From Dictyostelium discoideum (taxonomy: Eukaryota): a stretch of 64,000 nt of DNA. Positions 35,703-55,950 of this stretch are shown here, piece by piece (the stretch's first letter is position 1; every line of letters starts with the position of its first letter). A model generated the notes under the pieces. That model saw only the letters and a list, made by a program, of their open reading frames with translations. It was not told where the DNA came from and ran no database searches. Where the stretch lies: NCBI GenBank assembly GCA_000004695.1, contig CM000151.3, positions 6,400,001-6,464,000 on the forward strand. Direction: 5' to 3'. A program made the translations under genes and the position numbers.

Positions 35703-38700
35703 CTATTGAGATAAATTTGAAGATTCTCTATTTAAACAACTTTTTGCAACAGAATCAAATAATTGAGCAATTTCTGGAGCAACTTTTGTGAAACCATGAG
35801 ACCAAAAGTTATATCTTAAATTTTTAATTAATTCGATAAAAGTGATTAATAGACCCCATGGATGTGGTTTATTACTAATTAATCTTTCCAAGAGTACTCT
35901 GGTGATTTGTTCTTTGATAATATCTTGACCAGATTCAGAGAAGAGGAATAAAATTACACAACTTAAGTAATGGGTATGATTATTTGGATAACGAAGTTGA
36001 TTGGCGATTGCATTGAAAAAGATATAACGACCTTCACTATCGAGATCCAAAGCCAAACGATGGAAAATATCCATTGGAGCACTTTGTGATGGTGTTGGAG
36101 CAACACCAGATTTACGTTGAATTTGTGGAATTGCCAATGTTCCAATGTATAAAACGAGTGAATTAATGAGTGGTACATTGTATTTGGTGCCAGCAGCCAA
36201 GATTTCCTCTTTATCGGTGAGTAGTAAATGTTTATTCTTTAAATCCAACAAGAAAGAATATGGACCTCTATTCTTGAAGTAATTATCAATTTCAATTTTT
36301 AAACCTTTAAGACTTGCGGTAAAGTTTGAAGAGATTTTTGGTGGTTGATTAATATCTGGTAACATATCAATCTTTAAGTTTGGAGTGAAAGGATCTGGTA
36401 ATCTCATATTTCTTGGAAAGGCGGATAAGATGAGATTACGAAGTTGAATACAAGTATTTGGAATGACATCACATAAACTGAAATGATATTCACAGAGGAA
36501 CTCTGGGAAGTCATGAAGGAGTAAAAGGAGGACCTTCAAAGTACCCTTGTAGAGAACACGTACAGGTTCACTTAAGTCACCACCACGAAGGAAAGGTTCC
36601 AAGAATTTAAAGTGTTGAACCAATAGAGCATGGAACCATTGTTTTTGTTGTCTAATTAAAAGTTTTGGCATAAAGGATTTGTGAGAGAGAAGATCTAACC
36701 ATGCAAAACAGAAACCTGGATACTTTTGTGGTTGAAGTGTTGCCAAAGCATTGACAAAACAAAAGAGAATATGATTTGAGACATGTTCAAGTATTGGATC
36801 TGGTGAGGTTAAATCGACCAAAAGATTTTCAAATATTCTAAGGTAAGGACGTTGATTGAAACGTGATGGATTATTTTCATAGTCTTTGGTGAGGATTTTA
36901 ATTAGGACACTTAAGACTTTGGTTAACATATTGAGTTTGGTTGGATCGGCATGTTTGACCATCATTACAACGAATCTACACCAAGAGTCAATCTCAAGGT
37001 ATTGTGGTGATTGAATTTCAACATTTGCAGCATAACGTTCCAATGCATACTCTAAACCCAATCTAAAGAATTTAATAAAGTAAAGTTCATTCTTCATAAA
37101 ACTAATTTGTAATACTTGACCAAGATATTGAATGAGTATCTTTTGATCGGTATTGGTTGATGAGAAAAGTAACCAATCTTGAAGAAGAGCAATGACAGCC
37201 TCTCTAAGACCTGGTGGATCAACAATCATATCCTCTTGACGAATACGAGAGATACGACGTTTCTTTTCTTCTTTTGGTGAGTTTTTAATTTCTTCAAGAG
37301 TTTTGGCCAACATTTCCGATGGTGAACGACTACTAATCTTTTGAAGGAGATCAAAAGTTGATGGAAACTCTGAAAGATTTGCATAGTTATTTTCAACAAG
37401 ACAGAATCTTAATAGACTAATTGCAAAATCAATGGGTGGAGCCGAACGTGAATCTATCATCATCTTTGAGAGTGCCAAATCATATTCGTTTATATTAATC
37501 AATTGATGAATGATTAAACCTGCTACCAATACACGATTTAATTTCTTATCAGGTGTACTAAATAAAAGGAATGATGTAATGGTGGTAATAACCTTTTGAT
37601 CCCAATCACGTAAAACTTCTAAAAGTTCAAAATAAATTTCATAAATTGGTTTCTTTTCTTGTTCACATAATCTATTACATAATCTTTGTGCAAAACCTGC
37701 TAATAATTCTGATTGACTTTGTGACATACGAACTAATGTAAGAATTTGTTGACTAATTGTATATAAAAGTTCTAATTCAATATTTTGAGTTTGAGCTAAA
37801 ACTCTAATTACAACTTTATCAACTTCATTTAATAATAATCCAAATTTCTCTAAAAGATCTGAATTTGGTAAATTTTGTTGTTGTTGTTGTTGTTGTTGTT
37901 GAACTTGTTGTTGTTGTTGTTGAACTTGCTGTTGTTGTTGTTGTTGTTGTTGATGCTGTTGTTGAGCAGCTTGAAGAGCAGCTTGTTGAGCTTGTTGTTG
38001 TAATAATTGCATTTGAATTTGTTGCTGTTGTTGTTGTTGTAAAATTTGTTGAGAAACTTGTTGTTGCATTTGTTGTTGAACCAATTGTTGTGACATAACA
38101 CCAGTTGATTTAATAGCACCACTAACAATATCATTAGTTGGAGAAGCAGTTAAATTATCAGTTTCACCAGCACCACCAACATTTGAAATATTTATATGAT
38201 GTGGAAGATTAGTGAAATCTTCATAGACACGAAATTGATCTGGTTGAATACCACCTGGTTTTGGACGTAATGATTCTGGGAGAGTATTATAGATTGTAGT
38301 GGTGAGATAACCCATATCAAAGAATGGTTGTGAACCCATTTGTTCTCTATGTTTAAGACGATCATTGTAACTACTAGCCAATACTTCATCGATGGAAATG
38401 ATTGCTTTTTCAGTGGCAGCGGTTTCAACGATGGAACAAGCAAAATCTAAATTTTCATTACAAACCAAACTAATTGCATGCTCTAATGGTATCTCACAAG
38501 GTGGAAGACCATTATTATTTTGAAGAAGAGTTCTAAGGTAAGCAATGATTGAAACACGAAGTGGATCTTTACAAGTGACCAAAGCAAGACTACCAGCAAG
38601 ATTTTGAACCATTAAATGAGAGGCTCTCTTCATTTTTTGTTCATCAGCTTCGGTGGCAAAATCTTTACTAACCAATTCTTTAGAGGTAATTACAGCGATG

Positions 38701-39662
38701 GCAACTGATCTTTCAACTACTGGAGCGATGATTTCACGAACTGCCTTATCGAATGCCAAAGGTACAGCTTTCTTAAAGATTGGTGATTGAGCATAGGCAC
38801 CAATGGAAGGAGTGTAAACAAGATAACGTGGAAGATTTGAAAGTAAATCGATTGATGATTGTTTATTATCTTTTCTCATGTTTTCTTCTTGTTGTTCAAT
38901 TTCACGTTGTTGACGACGATCGGCTAGAATGGTTGTTGGTTTAACAGTATTAATATCAACGGATAAATTATTACAAAGTAATTCCACTTCGAATTTGATA
39001 TTATTTTTGGATTCTTTCAATTGATAAATTTCAACCATTAAACGTAATATTGCCATCACCCAAGGATTTGGTGGTCTGAATACTTTTGATTGTTGACAAT
39101 GTTCCAATAGTTTTGCAACAAATGGAACGATTGCAATTAATAAACCATTCTCTGCTGCATAAATTAAAAGATCCTTTGGTGAAATGACCTTTTGTAACAA
39201 TGGTTTATTACGAGCCAAAGTATTTAAACCTAACCAACCACCCAAATTCTTTAGGAGTGAACGTTCACTATGATCAACACGAATCTTTTCTGATTTTAAA
39301 AGGGTATGAACATTTTGATGAGAATGGAAAAGTACACGCTCTGAAATCGTTGGAATACAAAGACGGTCAATAAATGCAAGATAAAGTGCATGGAAATTTG
39401 CTTCAATTGAAACTCTCTTTACAACAAGATATTGAGCAAAGTAATCATAGTATTCTGGTTTCAAAATATCTTTAAGATCTTTTGCTTTAACATCTAAATT
39501 ATTTTGTGAAATATTATTAATAATAAAGTAAATCTTATCTTTGGTAATATCATCTGGTTGAATCATTTCTTTCGATGCATTTAAAAGTGTACCAATTGGT
39601 ATGGTTGTACTAAATGCATCTTCTTGATCTTTTTTTCTTTTATCATCATCTTTACCATTTGG

Positions 39663-39704
<42 letters not shown>

Positions 39705-40556
39705 ATGATGTTGTTGTTGTTGTTGATGGTGATGATGTTGTTGATGATGTTGTTGTTGTTGTTGCTGTTGTAATTGTTGATGTTGATGATGTTGTTGTTG
39801 TAATTGTATTTGTTGTTGTAATTGTAATTGTTGAGCCATTTTATGTTGTAGTAATTGTTGTTGTTGTAACATTTGTTGTTGTTGTAATAATTGTTGTTGT
39901 TGTTGTGGAGTTAATTGATGATATTGATCGGCTGAAATATCATTACCACCACCACCAACATTACCACTTGAAGTATTTGAATCATAGGTGAAATTCTCTG
40001 CATCTTGGATTTGTTGAGATGATAGGATTGTAGTAGCAGGTGGAGAATTTGCAGATTTTTGTTGTTGAGGTTGTTGTTGTGGTTGTTGTTGTTGTTGTTG
40101 TTGTTGTGGTTGTTGTTGTTGTTGAAATTCCATACCATTTTTTATTGGATCGCTTGATTCAATGATTTTATTAACTGATAAAATTATATCGCCATAATTA
40201 TCTCTAAAATGATCTATTGAACAAATTTGAGCCCAATATTGTGGCCATTCAACCAATCTATTTGCAAATGAGATTAATGAATTTACACCAAAAATAAACA
40301 TATTACTATTCAATGGGAATCTCATTGCCTCCAATACATATTTTAATGCAACTCTTAATGGTTGTGAGGAAATCAATTGATTCTTTATCAATGATCCAAA
40401 TAATAAACCTGTAATTTTCAATTCTTTATCTGGATAATCACTAAGGAATTTATATTCATCAAATAAATTAAATAATAAACATTTGAATATATCTTGATCC
40501 CTATTTTTTTTTTAAAAAAAAAAAAAAAAATAAAAATGATATTAGTAAAATTAATT

Positions 40557-45627: not shown

Positions 45628-46224
45628 TTAGTTTTTTAAAATGAAACCATTTTTTGGAGACTTTGAAATGAACCTATAAATTTGTTCCAATGATAAATGT
45701 TTAATATTTGAAGTATTTCCATTCAATATAAATACAAAGCCACCTGGTTCCAATTTTAGTAAACCTGGGTGCGAATATCCATTACCATTATAATATACTA
45801 TAGTATTGGTTTTAACTAGTCTCATTACTTCATTTCTAAAATTATTATTATTTCTATTTCTAAAATTATTATTATTATTATTATTATTTGGATTATTATT
45901 TGGATTATTATTTGGATTATTTGGATTATAATGGGTTAAATCTTTCATTTTTATTGAGGAACTATCTTTGATTTTATTTTTATTTTTATTCTTTTTATTT
46001 TTAATTTCTTTTTTAAAACAAAAGCAACCACAACAAAATATTAACTTTAGAATATTTCTAATGATTGGAAATTTAAAACATAAGACAATCACTATTACTA
46101 TAACTATAAGAGCTGTCAATAATAATGTAAATTTAGTTGCACAAATTTTTAGTTGTGTATAATAACAAACAACATTTAATCTATAATTATAAAAATAAGT
46201 AAAGGTTAGATAATTAGTTTTTAG

Positions 46225-46313
<89 letters not shown>

Positions 46314-47748
46314 GTTATTATTATTATTATTATTATTTTTAATTACATACAAATTTGGACAAACATCATCACAAGTAAATTCAGAACCAATATTTAAAGA
46401 ATCACCATCTAAAGAGTTATCACCAGATTGAGCACCATTATCAATTTCAGTATCAGAAGTATTAAAATTAATTCTTATACTATCGATAACTTGAGCCACT
46501 TCATTATATAAATCACCAAAACAATGATATGATGAATCTAATTTTGAAGTAGTATAAACTTGAAATACAAAACTATAAATTTCCTTTGATTTAATGGTTA
46601 CTTGTTGATTATTGATAGGATTAATATCACCAGTACAATTAATGATTGTCATTGTATAGTCTGCATTGATTGTACCAGTATTTTGGACGTTTACTCTTAG
46701 TACACCATTTTTTGACATTGATTCAAATCTATCGATTTGGTAATTTATAATTTTACCAGGTGAAATATTAACAATATATTGAAGTGAATCGGCTTTCAAT
46801 GTAATGGTTAACATTGTTCTATGGGATTCATCAAATCTAATTTTCAAAGATCTTGAATCTTGATTACCTGCAATCTGAACCTTTGTACCCAATTGAGAGG
46901 CTATATAATTTCCCTTCTTACCACTGGAAATCAATGCAACATCGGCATTATAATAATCTGCAATTTGATTTTGAAGACAAGAACCAAATAAAGCGGCACA
47001 ACTATTGGGTTGATTTTGAAAAGCACTATAGGAAACACCGATTTTATTACAAGTTAAACCTGATAAATCAAAGAAATTCTGATCCAACACCATACAAGTG
47101 TTTATAGAATTTGGTTGATTGTAGGGAAATACCACTTTCTTATCAGTGAATTGATTGATTTGAGTCGATGATTGAAAATCACCAATAATTCTAACAATTG
47201 CTTGACTAAATGTATCCATACCCATTGGAGCTGAATTTGATAGTATAATATCTTGAGTGATTGGATTTTGATTATAACTATAGGTTAATGTCGCTGTTAT
47301 TGTATATTCAACTTGAGTTTTTGCAACATTATAAACATCATATTTCACCGAACTAAATGATAAACAATGTGCTGATGATGATTTGGACCCTAATAATGAA
47401 CAACCTAAATTTGCTCTTGAATTTTGATCGGCACCAACATAATCTGAAAAAGAACAACTACAACAAAATCCTTGACTGTCTCTAATTAATTTACCATTGG
47501 CATCTATTGCACCTGGACATGTATGATCAGTTGGTTTATCTTTACAACCACTAGTTAAAACATAATCAGTTTTATAAATAACAGTTTCTTTTGGTTGATA
47601 AGCTACATTTTGTACATAAACTAATGGATAATTTATAAATGTTTCTGATTTTTTAAATTTTACTGAAATTGGTATAACTAATGTTTTTAATTTACCATTT
47701 TCATCTTTAATTTCACTAACTTGAAAATTAAATGTTTCTGAATTTTCC

Positions 47749-47805
<57 letters not shown>

Positions 47806-48087
47806 ATATTAAAAAAAAAAAAAAATTAATACATATTATTTATTTTATATTTTATATTTTTTTATTTATTTATTTTTTTATTTATTTTTTTTTACTTTTT
47901 GTGAATCTATGTAAAGTGAAACTACTAATTTTTTATCACATTTTAAATTTGTTTTATCTTGGTCAGCTAATTCAGTACCATCGAGAGTACAAGATTCAAT
48001 TGAGCTTGACGAAATGATTCCACACCATATTAAATTTATTTTTATAAAAAAAATAAAAATTGAAAAAAAGATCAATTTTTTGATCAT
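45628..48087 (-). CDS. Type-I membrane protein with HAP2/GCS1-like (gamete fusogen) ectodomain motifs. Proposed 3 exons: join(complement(47896..48087), complement(46351..47747), complement(45628..46180)), about 713 aa. Alternative unspliced end at 46221 gives a poly-N tail with no TM.
   Basis: Exon 1 is a signal peptide (MIKKLIFFSIFIFFIKINLIWCG...), ending at AAA|GTAAAA (plus 47894-47895) with a tttttAG acceptor at 47748-47749. Exon 2 is a Cys-rich ectodomain with RDSQGFCCSCSF, SSSAHCLSFS, LTCNKIGVSYSAFQNQPNSCAALFGSCLQNQ and ISPGKIINYQI, which resemble conserved HAP2/GCS1 blocks. A GTATGT donor (plus 46345-46350, phase 2) and a ttatAG acceptor (plus 46181-46182) remove a 170-nt (AAT)n-containing intron. 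TT+A = L joins to LLNVVCYYTQLKICATKFTLLLTALIVIVIVIVLCFKFP (TM) followed by a CCGCFC juxtamembrane Cys cluster and a cytoplasmic tail. The downstream ORF 45628..46119 has no in-frame ATG ahead of the TM, which is consistent with it being an exon. Confidence 0.6.
46232..46336. repeat. (ATT)n tract, about 34 units with one ATTGTT variant, proposed to be intronic in the HAP2-like gene rather than a coding poly-N tail.
   Basis: Lies between the GTATGT donor (46345-46350) and the AG acceptor (46181-46182) of the proposed intron. Confidence 0.7.
47753..47808. repeat. (AAAT)14 tetranucleotide repeat inside intron 1 of the HAP2-like gene. The same motif recurs in THOC3 intron 3.
   Basis: Perfect AAAT/ATTT units. 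Confidence 0.9.
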
Positions 48088-48690: not shown

Positions 48691-50078
48691 ATGACATTAG
48701 ACCCATATTCAGGATCAGTCGATTGCCGTGACTGGAAGAAATCAGCAATTAAAAAAGCTATTGAAGATGGTATATTTAAAGAACATGACTATGTAATGCT
48801 TTATAATCTTGACGAATTCAGAGCACTTGCCAAAGAAGCCTGCGACAACTTAAAAGGATTACAAACTATGGCAGTTAAATGTAATCCAGTTATGAGCTTA
48901 ATGAAAGAAGCAATTAAAGCTGGTCTTGGTGCTGAAGTTGCTTCATTTGGTGAATTAAGAATTGCAGAAATAGCTGGTTTTGAACCATCTGTAAGTATTC
49001 CAAAAATTTTTAATTCTTTTAAAATAAAAAAAAAATAAAAAAATAAAAAAATAAATCCTAATTTTTTTTTTTAATGAAAAAGAAAATTATATTTGATTCA
49101 CCAATTAAAACAAAAAAAGAATTAGAATATGCATTAAATTTAGGTGTTGTAATTAATATTGATAATTTTGAAGAATTAGAAACTATAGAATCAATTGTTT
49201 CAAAATTTTCAAAGGAAAAATATGAAAGTCTTTCGTTGGGTATTAGAGTGAATCCACAAGTTGGAGCAGGTAAATTAACTGATCTTAGTACAGGTGTACC
49301 AACATCTAAATTTGGTATTGGTATTGAACATAAAGATAAGATCATCGATGCCTATGTACGTAACAAATTTTTAAAGGGAGTTCATATTCATGTTGGATCA
49401 CAAGGTTTTGAAATTTCAAATATATCAGAATCTGCAGTTAAAGTTATGAATTTAGTGAAAGAGATTAATGCACGTGATGATACAAAATCTCAAATTACAT
49501 TCTTTAATATGGGTGGTGGTTTATCAGTAAACTTTGAATCAGAAGAGACTTCACCAACTTTCACTCAATATGCCAATCACATGAAACAATTATTACCAGA
49601 ATTATTCAATGGTGAATTTTTATTGATTACCGAATTTGGTCGTTCCTATTGGGCAAAATGTGGTGTCGTAGTTTCAACAGTTGAATATACAAAATCAAGT
49701 GGTGATCGTGAAATCGCAATTTGTCATGCCGGTGCAAATATGTACATTAGAACCGTTTATCAATTCCCATTGTGGAGAATTAGAGTAACCATTTTCGATT
49801 CAAATGGTGAATATAAAACTGGAAATGAAAAAATCACAGATATCGCTGGTCCTTGTTGTTTTGCCGCTGATGTTTTAGTAAAAGAAAGATTATTACCACC
49901 AATTAAAAAAGATGATTTCATTATGGCACATGATAGTGGTGCTTATATGCTTTCAAGTTATTCTCATTATAATTTAAGATTAGCTCCACCAATTTTCTCT
50001 TTTAATACCACAAATAATACAATTGAATTAATTAAAAAAGGTGAAACTATTGAAGATAAAATTAATTTCTTTTCTTAA
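48691..50078 (+). CDS. Fold-type III PLP-dependent decarboxylase of the Orn/DAP/Arg decarboxylase family, most like diaminopimelate decarboxylase (LysA). 2 exons: join(48691..48990, 49083..50078), about 431 aa.
   Basis: Donor TCT|GTAAGT (48991) and acceptor tttaatgaaaaAG (49081-49082), phase 0. LysA-like motifs present: IRVNPQVGAG, HIHVGSQ, GGGLSV, EFGRSY (EPGR), GPCCFAADV (GPLCESGDV), HDSGAY, SSYSHYN. Confidence 0.8.
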
Positions 50079-50282: not shown

Positions 50283-52161
50283 TTAAAAAAGATCAGAAAT
50301 TAAATCTTTTGACGATGGTTTACAATTTTCAGGAATATCAAATGAAGCAATGATTTGTTTTGAAACTTTGGTAACTTCAAAACAAAGATCTTGAATTAAG
50401 AATGGGATTGATTGAGCAACATTTGGTGAGATTAAGTGATTTGAAACGAACCAACCTAAATCTTCTTCAATGGAGACAAGAGCGTCCAACATAATTAAAT
50501 GAGCTAATGGTTTAACGTTTTTAAGTTTTAATGTATTGATAGAGTTTTGGAAAACGATTTTAGTCATGTGAGCAAAACCTAATTTGACAGCCCATGGAAT
50601 TGCATTGTTAAAAGCGAAATAAGCAGGTTCTTTAGAGTTGCTAATGATTTGTTTTAATTCGGCCAAACGAATCTCTTCTCTAGTTTCAAATAATTGATTA
50701 ATATTTGAAAAATTGAATAATAACGATTTGGCATCTTCACCATCTAAATAGATACGATTGGTAGTGGTATTTGTTTGTTTTTGTTTTACACCTAATAAAT
50801 ACTTGGCCAATTGTTGCATGAGAACAGTATTATCACCTTCATATGTACAAACGATATCACAATCATTTTTAAATTCAGCTATACGATTTGCTGAACGGTA
50901 ACCTTGACCACCACAAGCTTCACGACAAGTTTGGAGTGCTGCAACACAGAACCAACTGTAAACTGCTTTGATACCTGAGCAATGGGCATGGATTGAAGCT
51001 GGTAATTTCTCTTGACATAATTCATTGGTTAAACGTTGAATGTAAAGATCAAACAAGATGGTTCTTGCCAATGGTGCCATAAGACGACGTTGTTGTGAAC
51101 TGAGAGTAATCAATGGAAGCTCATTATTTGCAGATGGACCAAACTGTTTTCTAATATGTGAGAATTCAATAGCAATAGAGAGGGAGGTTTTGGCAGCACC
51201 TGAACAACCTTTAGTGATTGCCATTCTACCAACAATGAATGGTGCCATTGTTGCAGCGAAATTCTTTATTGGTGTATTGAATTGACTCTTGTAAACACCG
51301 TCTTCGCTAACATCACTATATTTGTTTAAAAGGTTCTCTCTTGGGATACGAACTTGATCGAAACGAATTTGACCATTATCAATACCATTCAAACCTAACT
51401 TATGACCACAATCTTTAATGGTGATACCTTTCATGATTGCACCACTCTTTGGACAACGAAGTGGTACAACCAATGCATGAACACCATAATTTGTACCATC
51501 AATGATTAAGTTTGCGAAAACAGTAGTGTAGGTAGCATGAAGATAAGAACCACCAATCCAAAACTTTTCACTTGTTGGTGTTGGTGAATGAATGATAAAC
51601 TCTTTAGTTTGTTTATCGTAATGTGCAGTAGTTTCAATACCACGAACATTTGAACCATGACCAATCTCTGTCATTGCAAAGCAACCCATTGTCTTGAGGG
51701 TATTAGCATCTTCAATATATTTCTCATGTCTTGAGGTACCTAAAAACATGATTGTACCTCCAAATAATGTATAATGAACACCCAATTTGGTACAAACATT
51801 GTTATTATACAATGAAAACATTTCTACAACACCAGCATATCTGTGAAGGTTATTCTTAATATCAGTCAAATGAATTAATCCACTATTTGCAACAGCAACA
51901 CATTGTTCAAGTACTAATTGTCTATAGGTAGCCATATCCAATCCAATGAAATTCTCTTTGAATTTTGGATGATTTCTAATGAATTCTCTTGCTGCATCCT
52001 TATATTTACTTGCTTCAACTGAATCAATTAATAATTTTAATTCTCCAACATTTATATTTGCATCAATTGAATTAAATAATTCTTTTTCTAATACTTCATT
52101 TTTATTATTTGTTGTTTGACTATTAACATCTAAATGTTTTTTAATCTATATTATATATATG

Positions 52162-54071: not shown

Positions 54072-55950
54072 TTAAAAAAGATCAGAAATTAAATCCTTTG
54101 ATGATGGTTTACAATTTTCAGGAATATCAAATGAAGCGATAATTTGTTTTGAAACTTTAGTAACTTCAAAACAAAGATCTTGAATTAAGAATGGGATTGA
54201 TTGAGCAACATTTGGTGAGATTAAATGATTTGAAACGAACCAACCTAAATCTTCTTCAATGGAGACGAGAGCATCCAACATAATTAAATGAGTTAATGGT
54301 TTAACGTTTTTAAGTTTTAATGTATTGATAGAGTTTTGGAAAACGATTTTAGTCATGTGAGCAAAACCTAATTTGACAGCCCATGGAATTGCATTGTTAA
54401 AAGCGAAATAAGCAGATTCTTTAGAGTTGTCAATGATTTGTTTTAATTCGGCCAAACGCATCTCTTCTCTAGTTTCAAATAATTGATTTATATTCGAAAA
54501 ATTGAAAAATAACGATTTGGCATCTTCACCATCTAAATAGATACGATTGGTAGTGGTATTTGTTTGTTTTTGTTTTACACCTAATAAATACTTGGCCAAT
54601 TGTTGCATGAGAACAGTGTTATCACCTTCATATGTGCAAATGATATCACAATCATTTTTAAATTCAGCTATACGATTTGCTGAACGGTAACCCTGGCCAC
54701 CACAAGCTTCACGACAAGTTTGGAGTGCTGCAACACAGAACCAACTGTAAACTGCTTTGATACCAGAGCAGTGAGCATGGATTGAAGCTGGTAATTTCTC
54801 TTGACATAATTCATTGGTTAAACGTTGAATGTAAAGATCAAACAAGATGGTTCTTGCCAATGGTGCCATAAGACGACGTTGTTGAGAACTGAGAGTAATC
54901 AATGGAAGCTCTTTATTTGAAGATGGGCCAAATTGTTTTCTAATATGTGAGAATTCAATAGCAATAGAGAGGGAGGTTTTAGCAGCACCTGAACAACCTT
55001 TAGTGATTGCCATTCTACCAACGATGAATGGTGACATTGTTGCAGCGAAATTCTTTATTGGTGTATTGAATTGGCTCTTGTAAACACCATCTTCGCTAAC
55101 ATCACTATATTTGTTTAAAAGGTTCTCTCTTGGGATACGAACTTGATCGAAACGAATTTGACCATTATCAATACCATTCAAACCTAACTTATGACCACAA
55201 TCTTTAATGGTGATACCTTTCATGATTGCACCACTCTTTGGACAACGAAGTGGTACAATAAATGCATGAATACCATAGTTTGTACCATCAATGATTAAGT
55301 TTGCGAAAACTACAGCATAGGTAGCATGAAGATAAGCGCAACCAATCCAAAACTTTTCACTTGTTGGTGTTGGTGAATGAATGATAAACTCTTTAGTTTG
55401 TTTATCGTAATGTGCAGTAGTTTCAATACCACGAACATTTGAACCATGACCAATCTCTGTCATTGCAAAGCAACCCATTGTCTTGAGGGTATTAGCATCT
55501 TCAATATATTTCTCATGTCTTGAGGTACCTAAAAATATAATTGGACCTCCAAATAATGTATATTGAACACTCAATTTCGTTAAAATATTATTATTATACA
55601 ATGCAAACATTTCTAAAGCGCCTATATATCTGTGAAGGTTATTCTTAATATCAGTAAAATGAATTAATCCACGATTTGCAATTGCAGCACATTGCTCAAG
55701 TACTAATTGTCTATAGGTAGCCATATCCAATCCAATGAAATTCTCTTTGAATTTTGGATGATTTCTAATGAATTCTCTTGTTTCATCCTTATATTTACTT
55801 TCTTCAACTGAATCAATTAATAATTTTAATTCTCCAACATTAATATTTGTATCAATTGAATTAAATAATTCTTTTTCTAAAACTTCATCCTTATTATTTG
55901 TTGTTTGACTATTATTAACTTCTAAATGTTTTTTTATCTATATTATATAA

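Follow-up and report, generated by a model that had tools for sequence, protein, structure and literature searches.

HAP2/GCS1 is known as the gamete fusogen of dictyostelids, with a role in macrocyst formation. In Dictyostelium discoideum, Okamoto et al. 2016 named the HAP2-GCS1 orthologue HgrA (hgrA, DDB_G0276069) and described in it a signal peptide, a HAP2-GCS1 motif at residues 283-331 and a probable C-terminal transmembrane (TM) region (PMC4910948). According to the same study, cells of both type I and type II neither fuse sexually nor form macrocysts once hgrA is knocked out, hgrA cDNA rescues the D. discoideum knockout, and the earlier hgrA gene models were fragments (PMC4910948). Other dictyostelid proteins resemble HAP2 to a more limited extent: HgrB (DDB_G0281923) is HAP2-like in the motif region only, at 496-556, and is likewise required for that fusion step, while MatD and MatT have weak similarity to the HAP2 motif (PMC4910948). 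Here we analysed a stretch of 64,000 nucleotides (nt) of dictyostelid DNA, hereafter the window, and in it a gene on the minus strand at positions 45628-48087. We are highly confident that this gene is orthologous to HgrA (HAP2/GCS1) and comes from a group-4 dictyostelid that is a near relative of D. discoideum yet a separate species, and that the removal of two short, very A+T-rich GT-AG introns yields a type I membrane protein of 713 amino acids (aa).

A three-exon gene model for the HAP2/GCS1 orthologue

Joining three minus-strand exons (48087-47896, 47747-46351 and 46180-45628) gave 2142 nt in frame with a lone terminal stop, encoding 713 aa. The predicted exon-intron structure is as follows.

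47896-48087, minus strand: exon 1, 64 codons, with the ATG at 48087-48085; signal peptide (about aa 1-23) and start of the ectodomain
47748-47895, minus strand: intron 1, phase 0, 148 nt, GTAAAA...TTTTTAG, 98% A+T
47752-47835, minus strand: (ATTT)n microsatellite in intron 1, about 21 copies
46351-47747, minus strand: exon 2, 1397 nt, aa 65-530; most of the HAP2 ectodomain (domains I-III)
46181-46350, minus strand: intron 2, phase 2, 170 nt, GTATGT...TTATAG, 94% A+T
46231-46341, minus strand: (AAT)37 microsatellite in intron 2 (Tandem Repeats Finder: period 3, 37 copies, 96% matches)
45628-46180, minus strand: exon 3, aa 530 (third base) to 713, with the stop codon at 45628-45630

From its N-terminus, the encoded protein would begin with a signal peptide, followed by an ectodomain of the class II fusogen type (~520 aa), a four-cysteine stem, a TM helix, a Cys-rich polybasic motif and an Asn- and Lys-rich cytoplasmic tail. 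Exon 2 carries the HAP2-GCS1 motif (aa 283-331) and the candidate salt-bridge residues E118 and R175, and exon 3 supplies C535 and C543 of the stem, together with the TM helix, the Cys-rich polybasic motif and the tail. An initial annotation of this DNA had joined the last two exons; it did not spell out intron 1, without whose removal the signal-peptide exon would stay separate from these. The edges of exon 1 are those of exon 1 in D. discoideum (aa 1-64), and alignments to the HAP2 structures in the Protein Data Bank (PDB) start at aa 24 of the spliced protein. The A+T content was 94-98% in the introns versus 71-79% in the exons. As a separate observation, both introns of the gene consist largely of simple repeats, unlike their D. 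discoideum counterparts.

Read without splicing, the ectodomain open reading frame (ORF) continues as ...CPNLYVIKN(n)KKN* into a poly-Asn tail encoded by (AAT)37 and reaches a stop codon at 46221-46223, as the initial annotation had described. The splice sites that it proposed, a donor at 46345-46350 and an acceptor at 46181-46182, are both present: GTATGT lies at 46350-46345, ...TTATAG ends at 46181, and the phase-2 junction TT/A encodes Leu530, so that the predicted spliced sequence across 46351/46180 reads ...CCAAATTT joined to ATTAAATGT.... The ORF listing also bore out that ORF 45628-46119, which lies beyond this junction, lacks an ATG ahead of its hydrophobic helix, the only possible listed start being a TTG.

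The encoded protein belongs to HAP2/GCS1 across its whole ectodomain

The search with Pfam PF10699 (HAP2-GCS1) that had been proposed for this protein returned a match with E=9.5e-122 and 407.6 bits against a cut-off of 27.4, so the pattern is not due to chance. The match spans aa 47-539 of the spliced protein and positions 1-512 of the 515 in the profile, thereby crossing the exon 2/3 junction at aa 530, in keeping with the complete class-II-fusogen-like protein that the initial annotation had envisaged. Four ectodomain blocks that it recognised as HAP2/GCS1-conserved fall within this match, RDSQGFCCSCS at residue 153, SAHCLSF at 189, CNKIGVSYSAFQNQPNSCAALFGSC at 297 and SPGKIIN at 393; two further blocks, LLLTALIVIVIVIVLCF at 549 and CCGCFC at 579, follow in the spliced protein. 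In addition, the protein matched every solved HAP2 ectodomain by sequence, including those of T. cruzi (5ow4, 4.9e-57), A. thaliana (5ow3, 8.9e-54), C. reinhardtii (5mf1/6e18/6dbs, ~1e-47) and C. merolae (7s0k, 1e-40).

An AlphaFold2 model of aa 65-529, a structure prediction that had likewise been suggested for the class II fold, was nearly all beta with a mean pLDDT of 84.4. In a Foldseek comparison of this predicted ectodomain with the PDB, the best eight matches were all HAP2 ectodomains (E=2e-36 to 1e-31), followed by the archaeal Fsx1, viral class II fusion proteins and EFF-1 (E=1e-11 to 4e-15). The predicted structure thus has the three-domain, beta-rich class II fold, and three independent tests, namely Pfam, the sequence matches to solved ectodomains and the predicted structure, establish the HAP2/GCS1 identity of the protein.

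Residue conservation was counted in an alignment of 27 homologues. Eight cysteines (C192, C297, C314, C321, C435, C473, C523 and C535) are invariant, and C132, C141, C159, C160, C162, C180, C527 and C543 are kept in at least 90% of the homologues; this conserved disulfide pattern of the ectodomain includes the four-cysteine cluster of the stem, to which exon 2 contributes C523 and C527 and exon 3 contributes C535 and C543. E118 and R175 (R111 of exon 2) are also both kept in at least 90% of the homologues. E118, in QPKETV, aligns to 'kplEvil' of Chlamydomonas HAP2 (CrHAP2), and R175, in NSRANLGC, to 'tRANLDC', with a spacing and offset that fit the E126-R185 salt bridge of CrHAP2, which has been described as invariant and whose equivalent residue is essential in Arabidopsis (PMC6089408). 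E118-R175 is accordingly a predicted salt bridge that would brace the tip of domain II.

The protein shares with the solved HAP2 ectodomains of C. reinhardtii, A. thaliana, T. cruzi and C. merolae homology over the full ectodomain, the cysteines, the Glu-Arg pair and the predicted fold, but it differs from them in sequence, with 22-26% identity in structural alignments, in having only ~12 residues between CSCS and RANLGC, a segment that is short here and in other species makes up the variable fusion loops, and in its lineage-specific cytoplasmic tail. The other fusexins, including Fsx1 (7p4l), EFF-1 (4oje), alphavirus E1, flavivirus E and bunyavirus Gc, share the three-domain beta-rich fold by Foldseek, but have 8-13% identity to the window protein, lie outside PF10699 and ranked far under the HAP2 structures.

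The closest relative is D. discoideum HgrA

The nearest database relative by BLASTP was a 637-aa D. discoideum protein, KAM9971542, at 84% identity; over the first 585 residues the two proteins align with 86% identity and zero gaps. A dS of ~0.44 between the window gene and its D. discoideum counterpart shows that the two belong to different species, and the source species stands nearer to D. discoideum than D. purpureum does, as the D. purpureum protein is 60% identical to the window protein. The exact 713-aa protein was not found in a collection of 15 billion proteins. HgrA and the window protein have in common the signal peptide, the motif coordinates 283-331, the TM helix, the CCGC-C cluster and the positions and phases of both introns, whereas the D. 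discoideum gene differs in an intron 2 of 90 nt that lacks (AAT)n and in a protein that ends ...KMKGLTN*.

Given that dictyostelids possess HgrB, which is HAP2-like in its motif only, and the weakly motif-like MatD and MatT, the gene could be a diverged paralogue that carries the HAP2 motif, akin to HgrB or MatD/MatT, and serve another role. HgrB does share a HAP2-GCS1-like motif with the window protein. The window protein, by contrast, is HAP2-like across its whole ectodomain, matching PF10699 over 1-512 of 515 positions and so beyond the motif alone; it aligns without gaps to HgrA, its motif lies at 283-331 rather than at the 496-556 of HgrB, and both intron sites are common to the D. discoideum gene. 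Neither the position of the HgrB motif nor a likeness limited to about 496-556 fits the window protein, and we rejected this identity as exceedingly improbable.

Dictyostelid annotations often contain faulty models of HAP2 genes. The D. discoideum AX4 entry DDB_G0272452 / Q559R5, which falls in the same 90% cluster, is a fragment of 327 aa, and in a model of 1143 aa from 'Dictyostelium cf. discoideum' (P0013), dispersed HAP2 exons have been merged with a gene that lies upstream.

The (AAT)n tract lies in a predicted intron at a conserved position

Whether the (AAT)n tract is intronic or coding decides between an anchored and an anchorless protein. For comparison we turned to the orthologues in D. 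discoideum (locus L001), D. purpureum (L002) and Polysphondylium violaceum (L003), mapping the proteins back onto the DNA. In D. discoideum, introns interrupt the gene after codon 64 and inside codon 530, exactly the two sites of the window gene; the second of these introns is in phase 2, measures 90 nt and runs GTAAAT...TTATAG. At the site and in the phase of intron 2 of the window gene, D. purpureum likewise carries an intron, of ~69 nt. In neither species does intron 2 contain (AAT)n, and in both the unspliced frame halts at once (TTG TAA). P. violaceum has no intron at the site: CPNIINLLCF is contiguous, and ...CDDVCPNIINLLCF...TM...CCGCC is encoded in one contiguous reading, and this provides direct evidence for the joined protein sequence being genuine.

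The window sequence itself points the same way. Among nine in-frame GT..AG pairs, only 46350/46181 reproduces the conserved CPNL/LNVVCYY; the eight others were rejected, since each has a poor donor and would delete either stem cysteines or a portion of the TM helix. For the exon-3 codons 531-585, dN/dS relative to D. discoideum was 0.22, and exon 3 is thus constrained in the spliced frame. The PF10699 match and the conserved C535 and C543 also reach beyond the junction into exon 3. On comparative grounds, the case is strong that the (AAT)n tract is part of an ordinary intron at a conserved position, supporting the earlier suggestion that the microsatellite is intronic, and (AAT)37 would be a lineage-specific microsatellite that expanded inside intron 2.

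Intron 2 might nevertheless be retained, either constantly or as a regulated alternative, to give a secreted, anchorless ectodomain with a poly-Asn tail, ORF 45628-46119 being then untranslated or a separate product. The unspliced frame is indeed open across the entire (AAT)37, up to the stop at 46221, and poly-Asn tracts are common in Dictyostelium proteins. However, since the unspliced frame of D. discoideum and D. purpureum stops at TTG TAA, the poly-Asn tail is not conserved, and the retained product would lose C535, C543, the TM helix and the Cys cluster. Retention also sits poorly with the purifying selection on exon 3 in the spliced frame, with P. violaceum encoding the joined sequence intronless, with the canonical GTATGT...TTATAG ends and 94% A+T of the interval, and with an exon 3 that has no ATG of its own ahead of the TM helix. 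We consider retention of intron 2 very unlikely.

A third reading, in which the microsatellite expansion broke a former coding sequence and the locus is a decaying pseudogene, could appeal to the 111-nt repeat between two ORFs and to the different C-terminus in D. discoideum. Against it, each of the three exons is open, the joins keep the frame, and the window gene compared with D. discoideum over 585 codons gave a dN/dS of 0.16 at a dS of ~0.44, the signature of purifying selection. Every family-invariant residue is retained, and the repeat is wholly intronic, in an intron whose position is older than the split from D. purpureum. A pseudogene is scarcely credible on these grounds.

Several points weigh against a spliced, intact HAP2 gene and temper our reading of it. 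The removal of intron 2 is deduced by comparison between species, and Dictyostelium coding sequences are rich in poly-Asn tracts, so that a poly-Asn reading of (AAT)n is not implausible on composition alone. The AlphaFold2 model covers exon 2 only and was built on 26 sequences; as a monomer it superposes on the post-fusion trimers with an rmsd of ~30 Å and a TM score of ~0.5 in Foldseek, a large rmsd that probably reflects a differing relative placement of the domains in the modelled monomer, the smallest full-length rmsd being 10 Å, to C. merolae HAP2 (7s0k). Finally, the last ~100 residues of the tail have no D. discoideum counterpart, and the gene model is less certain there.

Topology and a proposed fusion mechanism

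Two further features of exon 3 bear on how the protein would be anchored.

46075-46131, minus strand: TM helix, aa 547-565 (FTLLLTALIVIVIVIVLCF), Kyte-Doolittle maximum 3.28; the sole hydrophobic segment besides the signal peptide
46018-46035, minus strand: CCGCFC cluster, aa 579-584, juxtamembrane and cytoplasmic, with a Lys-rich stretch next to it

With a Kyte-Doolittle window of 19 residues, the spliced protein showed two hydrophobic segments in all, the N-terminal signal, with its peak at aa 1-12, and aa 547-565. Hydropathy therefore predicts a type I membrane topology, which holds for the spliced model only. C-terminal to the TM helix lies the Cys-rich polybasic stretch CCGCFCFKKEIKNKKNKNKNKIK at aa 579-601, of a kind that has been described past the TM helix in many HAP2 orthologues (PMC8777248) and is common in the HAP2 family, though not universal. 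The CCGCFC cluster at its start, which the initial annotation had singled out, was found with its Lys-rich run and is conserved in three dictyostelids, its counterparts being CCGCSC in D. discoideum, CFCCC in D. purpureum and CCGCC in P. violaceum. By analogy with what has been discussed for other species, palmitoylation of these juxtamembrane cysteines is possible, and they may influence localisation jointly with the polybasic run.

By homology with other HAP2 proteins, we infer a fusogenic activity and a role in gamete fusion for the window protein, and likewise its expression pattern. On the gamete surface, the tip of domain II would insert into the partner membrane; HAP2 would then trimerise and fold back into a hairpin, and this fold-back would draw the TM-anchored membrane onto its target until the two cells merge. 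As such a mechanism needs a membrane anchor, intron 2 would have to be spliced out in the source cells.

A C-terminal module shared with D. purpureum

The part of the tail that lies beyond the similarity to D. discoideum ends in a distinct module.

45631-45840, minus strand: C-terminal cytoplasmic module, aa 644-713, ~70 aa, ...TIVYYNGNGYSHPGLLKLEPGGFVFILNGN...RFISKSPKNGFILKN*, with no assigned fold

The module resembles (E=2e-5) the C-terminus of D. purpureum HAP2 (L002 5249-5476) when the latter gene is translated without removal of its annotated 853-nt last intron; this read-through ends ...RTISKNPKYNLIN, and the window protein ends ...RFISKSPKNGFILKN. By this comparison, the 3' end of the D. 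purpureum model DICPUDRAFT_156210 is probably wrong, and the module, common to the window gene and D. purpureum, would have been lost in D. discoideum (L001/KAM9971542), where a remnant of the tail was looked for 3' of the stop codon and not found.

A Pfam search of the module at E up to 10 gave no match, and the D. purpureum tail gave sub-threshold noise only. With phmmer against 1.84 billion representatives, the module had 13 matches at E<=1e-3, mostly several weak stretches each, and no other HAP2 with this tail was among them. Six of the seven matches scanned with Pfam were long NHL-repeat beta-propeller proteins; we take the likeness to a single beta-hairpin blade to be fortuitous and uninformative as to the fold, and did not assign an NHL domain.

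These features invite a speculation that goes beyond a plain HAP2 gene. The (AAT)37 tract might make splicing inefficient or length-dependent, so that some secreted, anchorless poly-Asn ectodomain is produced and modulates or blocks fusion; separately, the module at aa 644-713 might regulate HAP2 trafficking or activation in dictyostelids. We hold this to be very unlikely.

Genomic neighbourhood

The genes around the window HAP2 gene recall those of P. violaceum. An Orn/DAP/Arg-decarboxylase-like gene at 48691-50078 (plus strand) is divergent from HAP2 and consists of two ORFs with a short gap, which is probably an intron. Tandem 552-aa ORFs at 50283-51941 and 54072-55730 (both minus strand) are ~95% identical across 1.9 kilobases and are similar to the C-terminal portion of the acyl-CoA oxidase whose gene adjoins HAP2 in P. 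violaceum; they look like a recent local duplication. Decarboxylase-like and acyl-CoA-oxidase neighbours are both found at the P. violaceum HAP2 locus, whereas the genes flanking the D. discoideum locus are unrelated to those of the window, so synteny around hgrA has been rearranged in D. discoideum. An ORF that is very long, with 1572 aa and no interruption, occupies 35703-40421 (minus strand), downstream of HAP2. A tRNA scan of the window returned zero genes.

Significance

The gene annotation is correct, and the gene itself is already well known. The interest for Dictyostelium mating and macrocysts that the initial annotation claimed was overstated, as the role of hgrA was published in 2016 (PMC4910948). 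The main value of the analysis lies in the correct annotation: an ORF-only or prokaryote-style call would yield a truncated, 'soluble' poly-Asn HAP2 and an orphan TM ORF, and early D. discoideum AX4 models, such as the 327-aa DDB_G0272452, were similarly fragmentary. For the family, the sequence adds one orthologue with which to compare HAP2 tails and the growth of microsatellites within introns.

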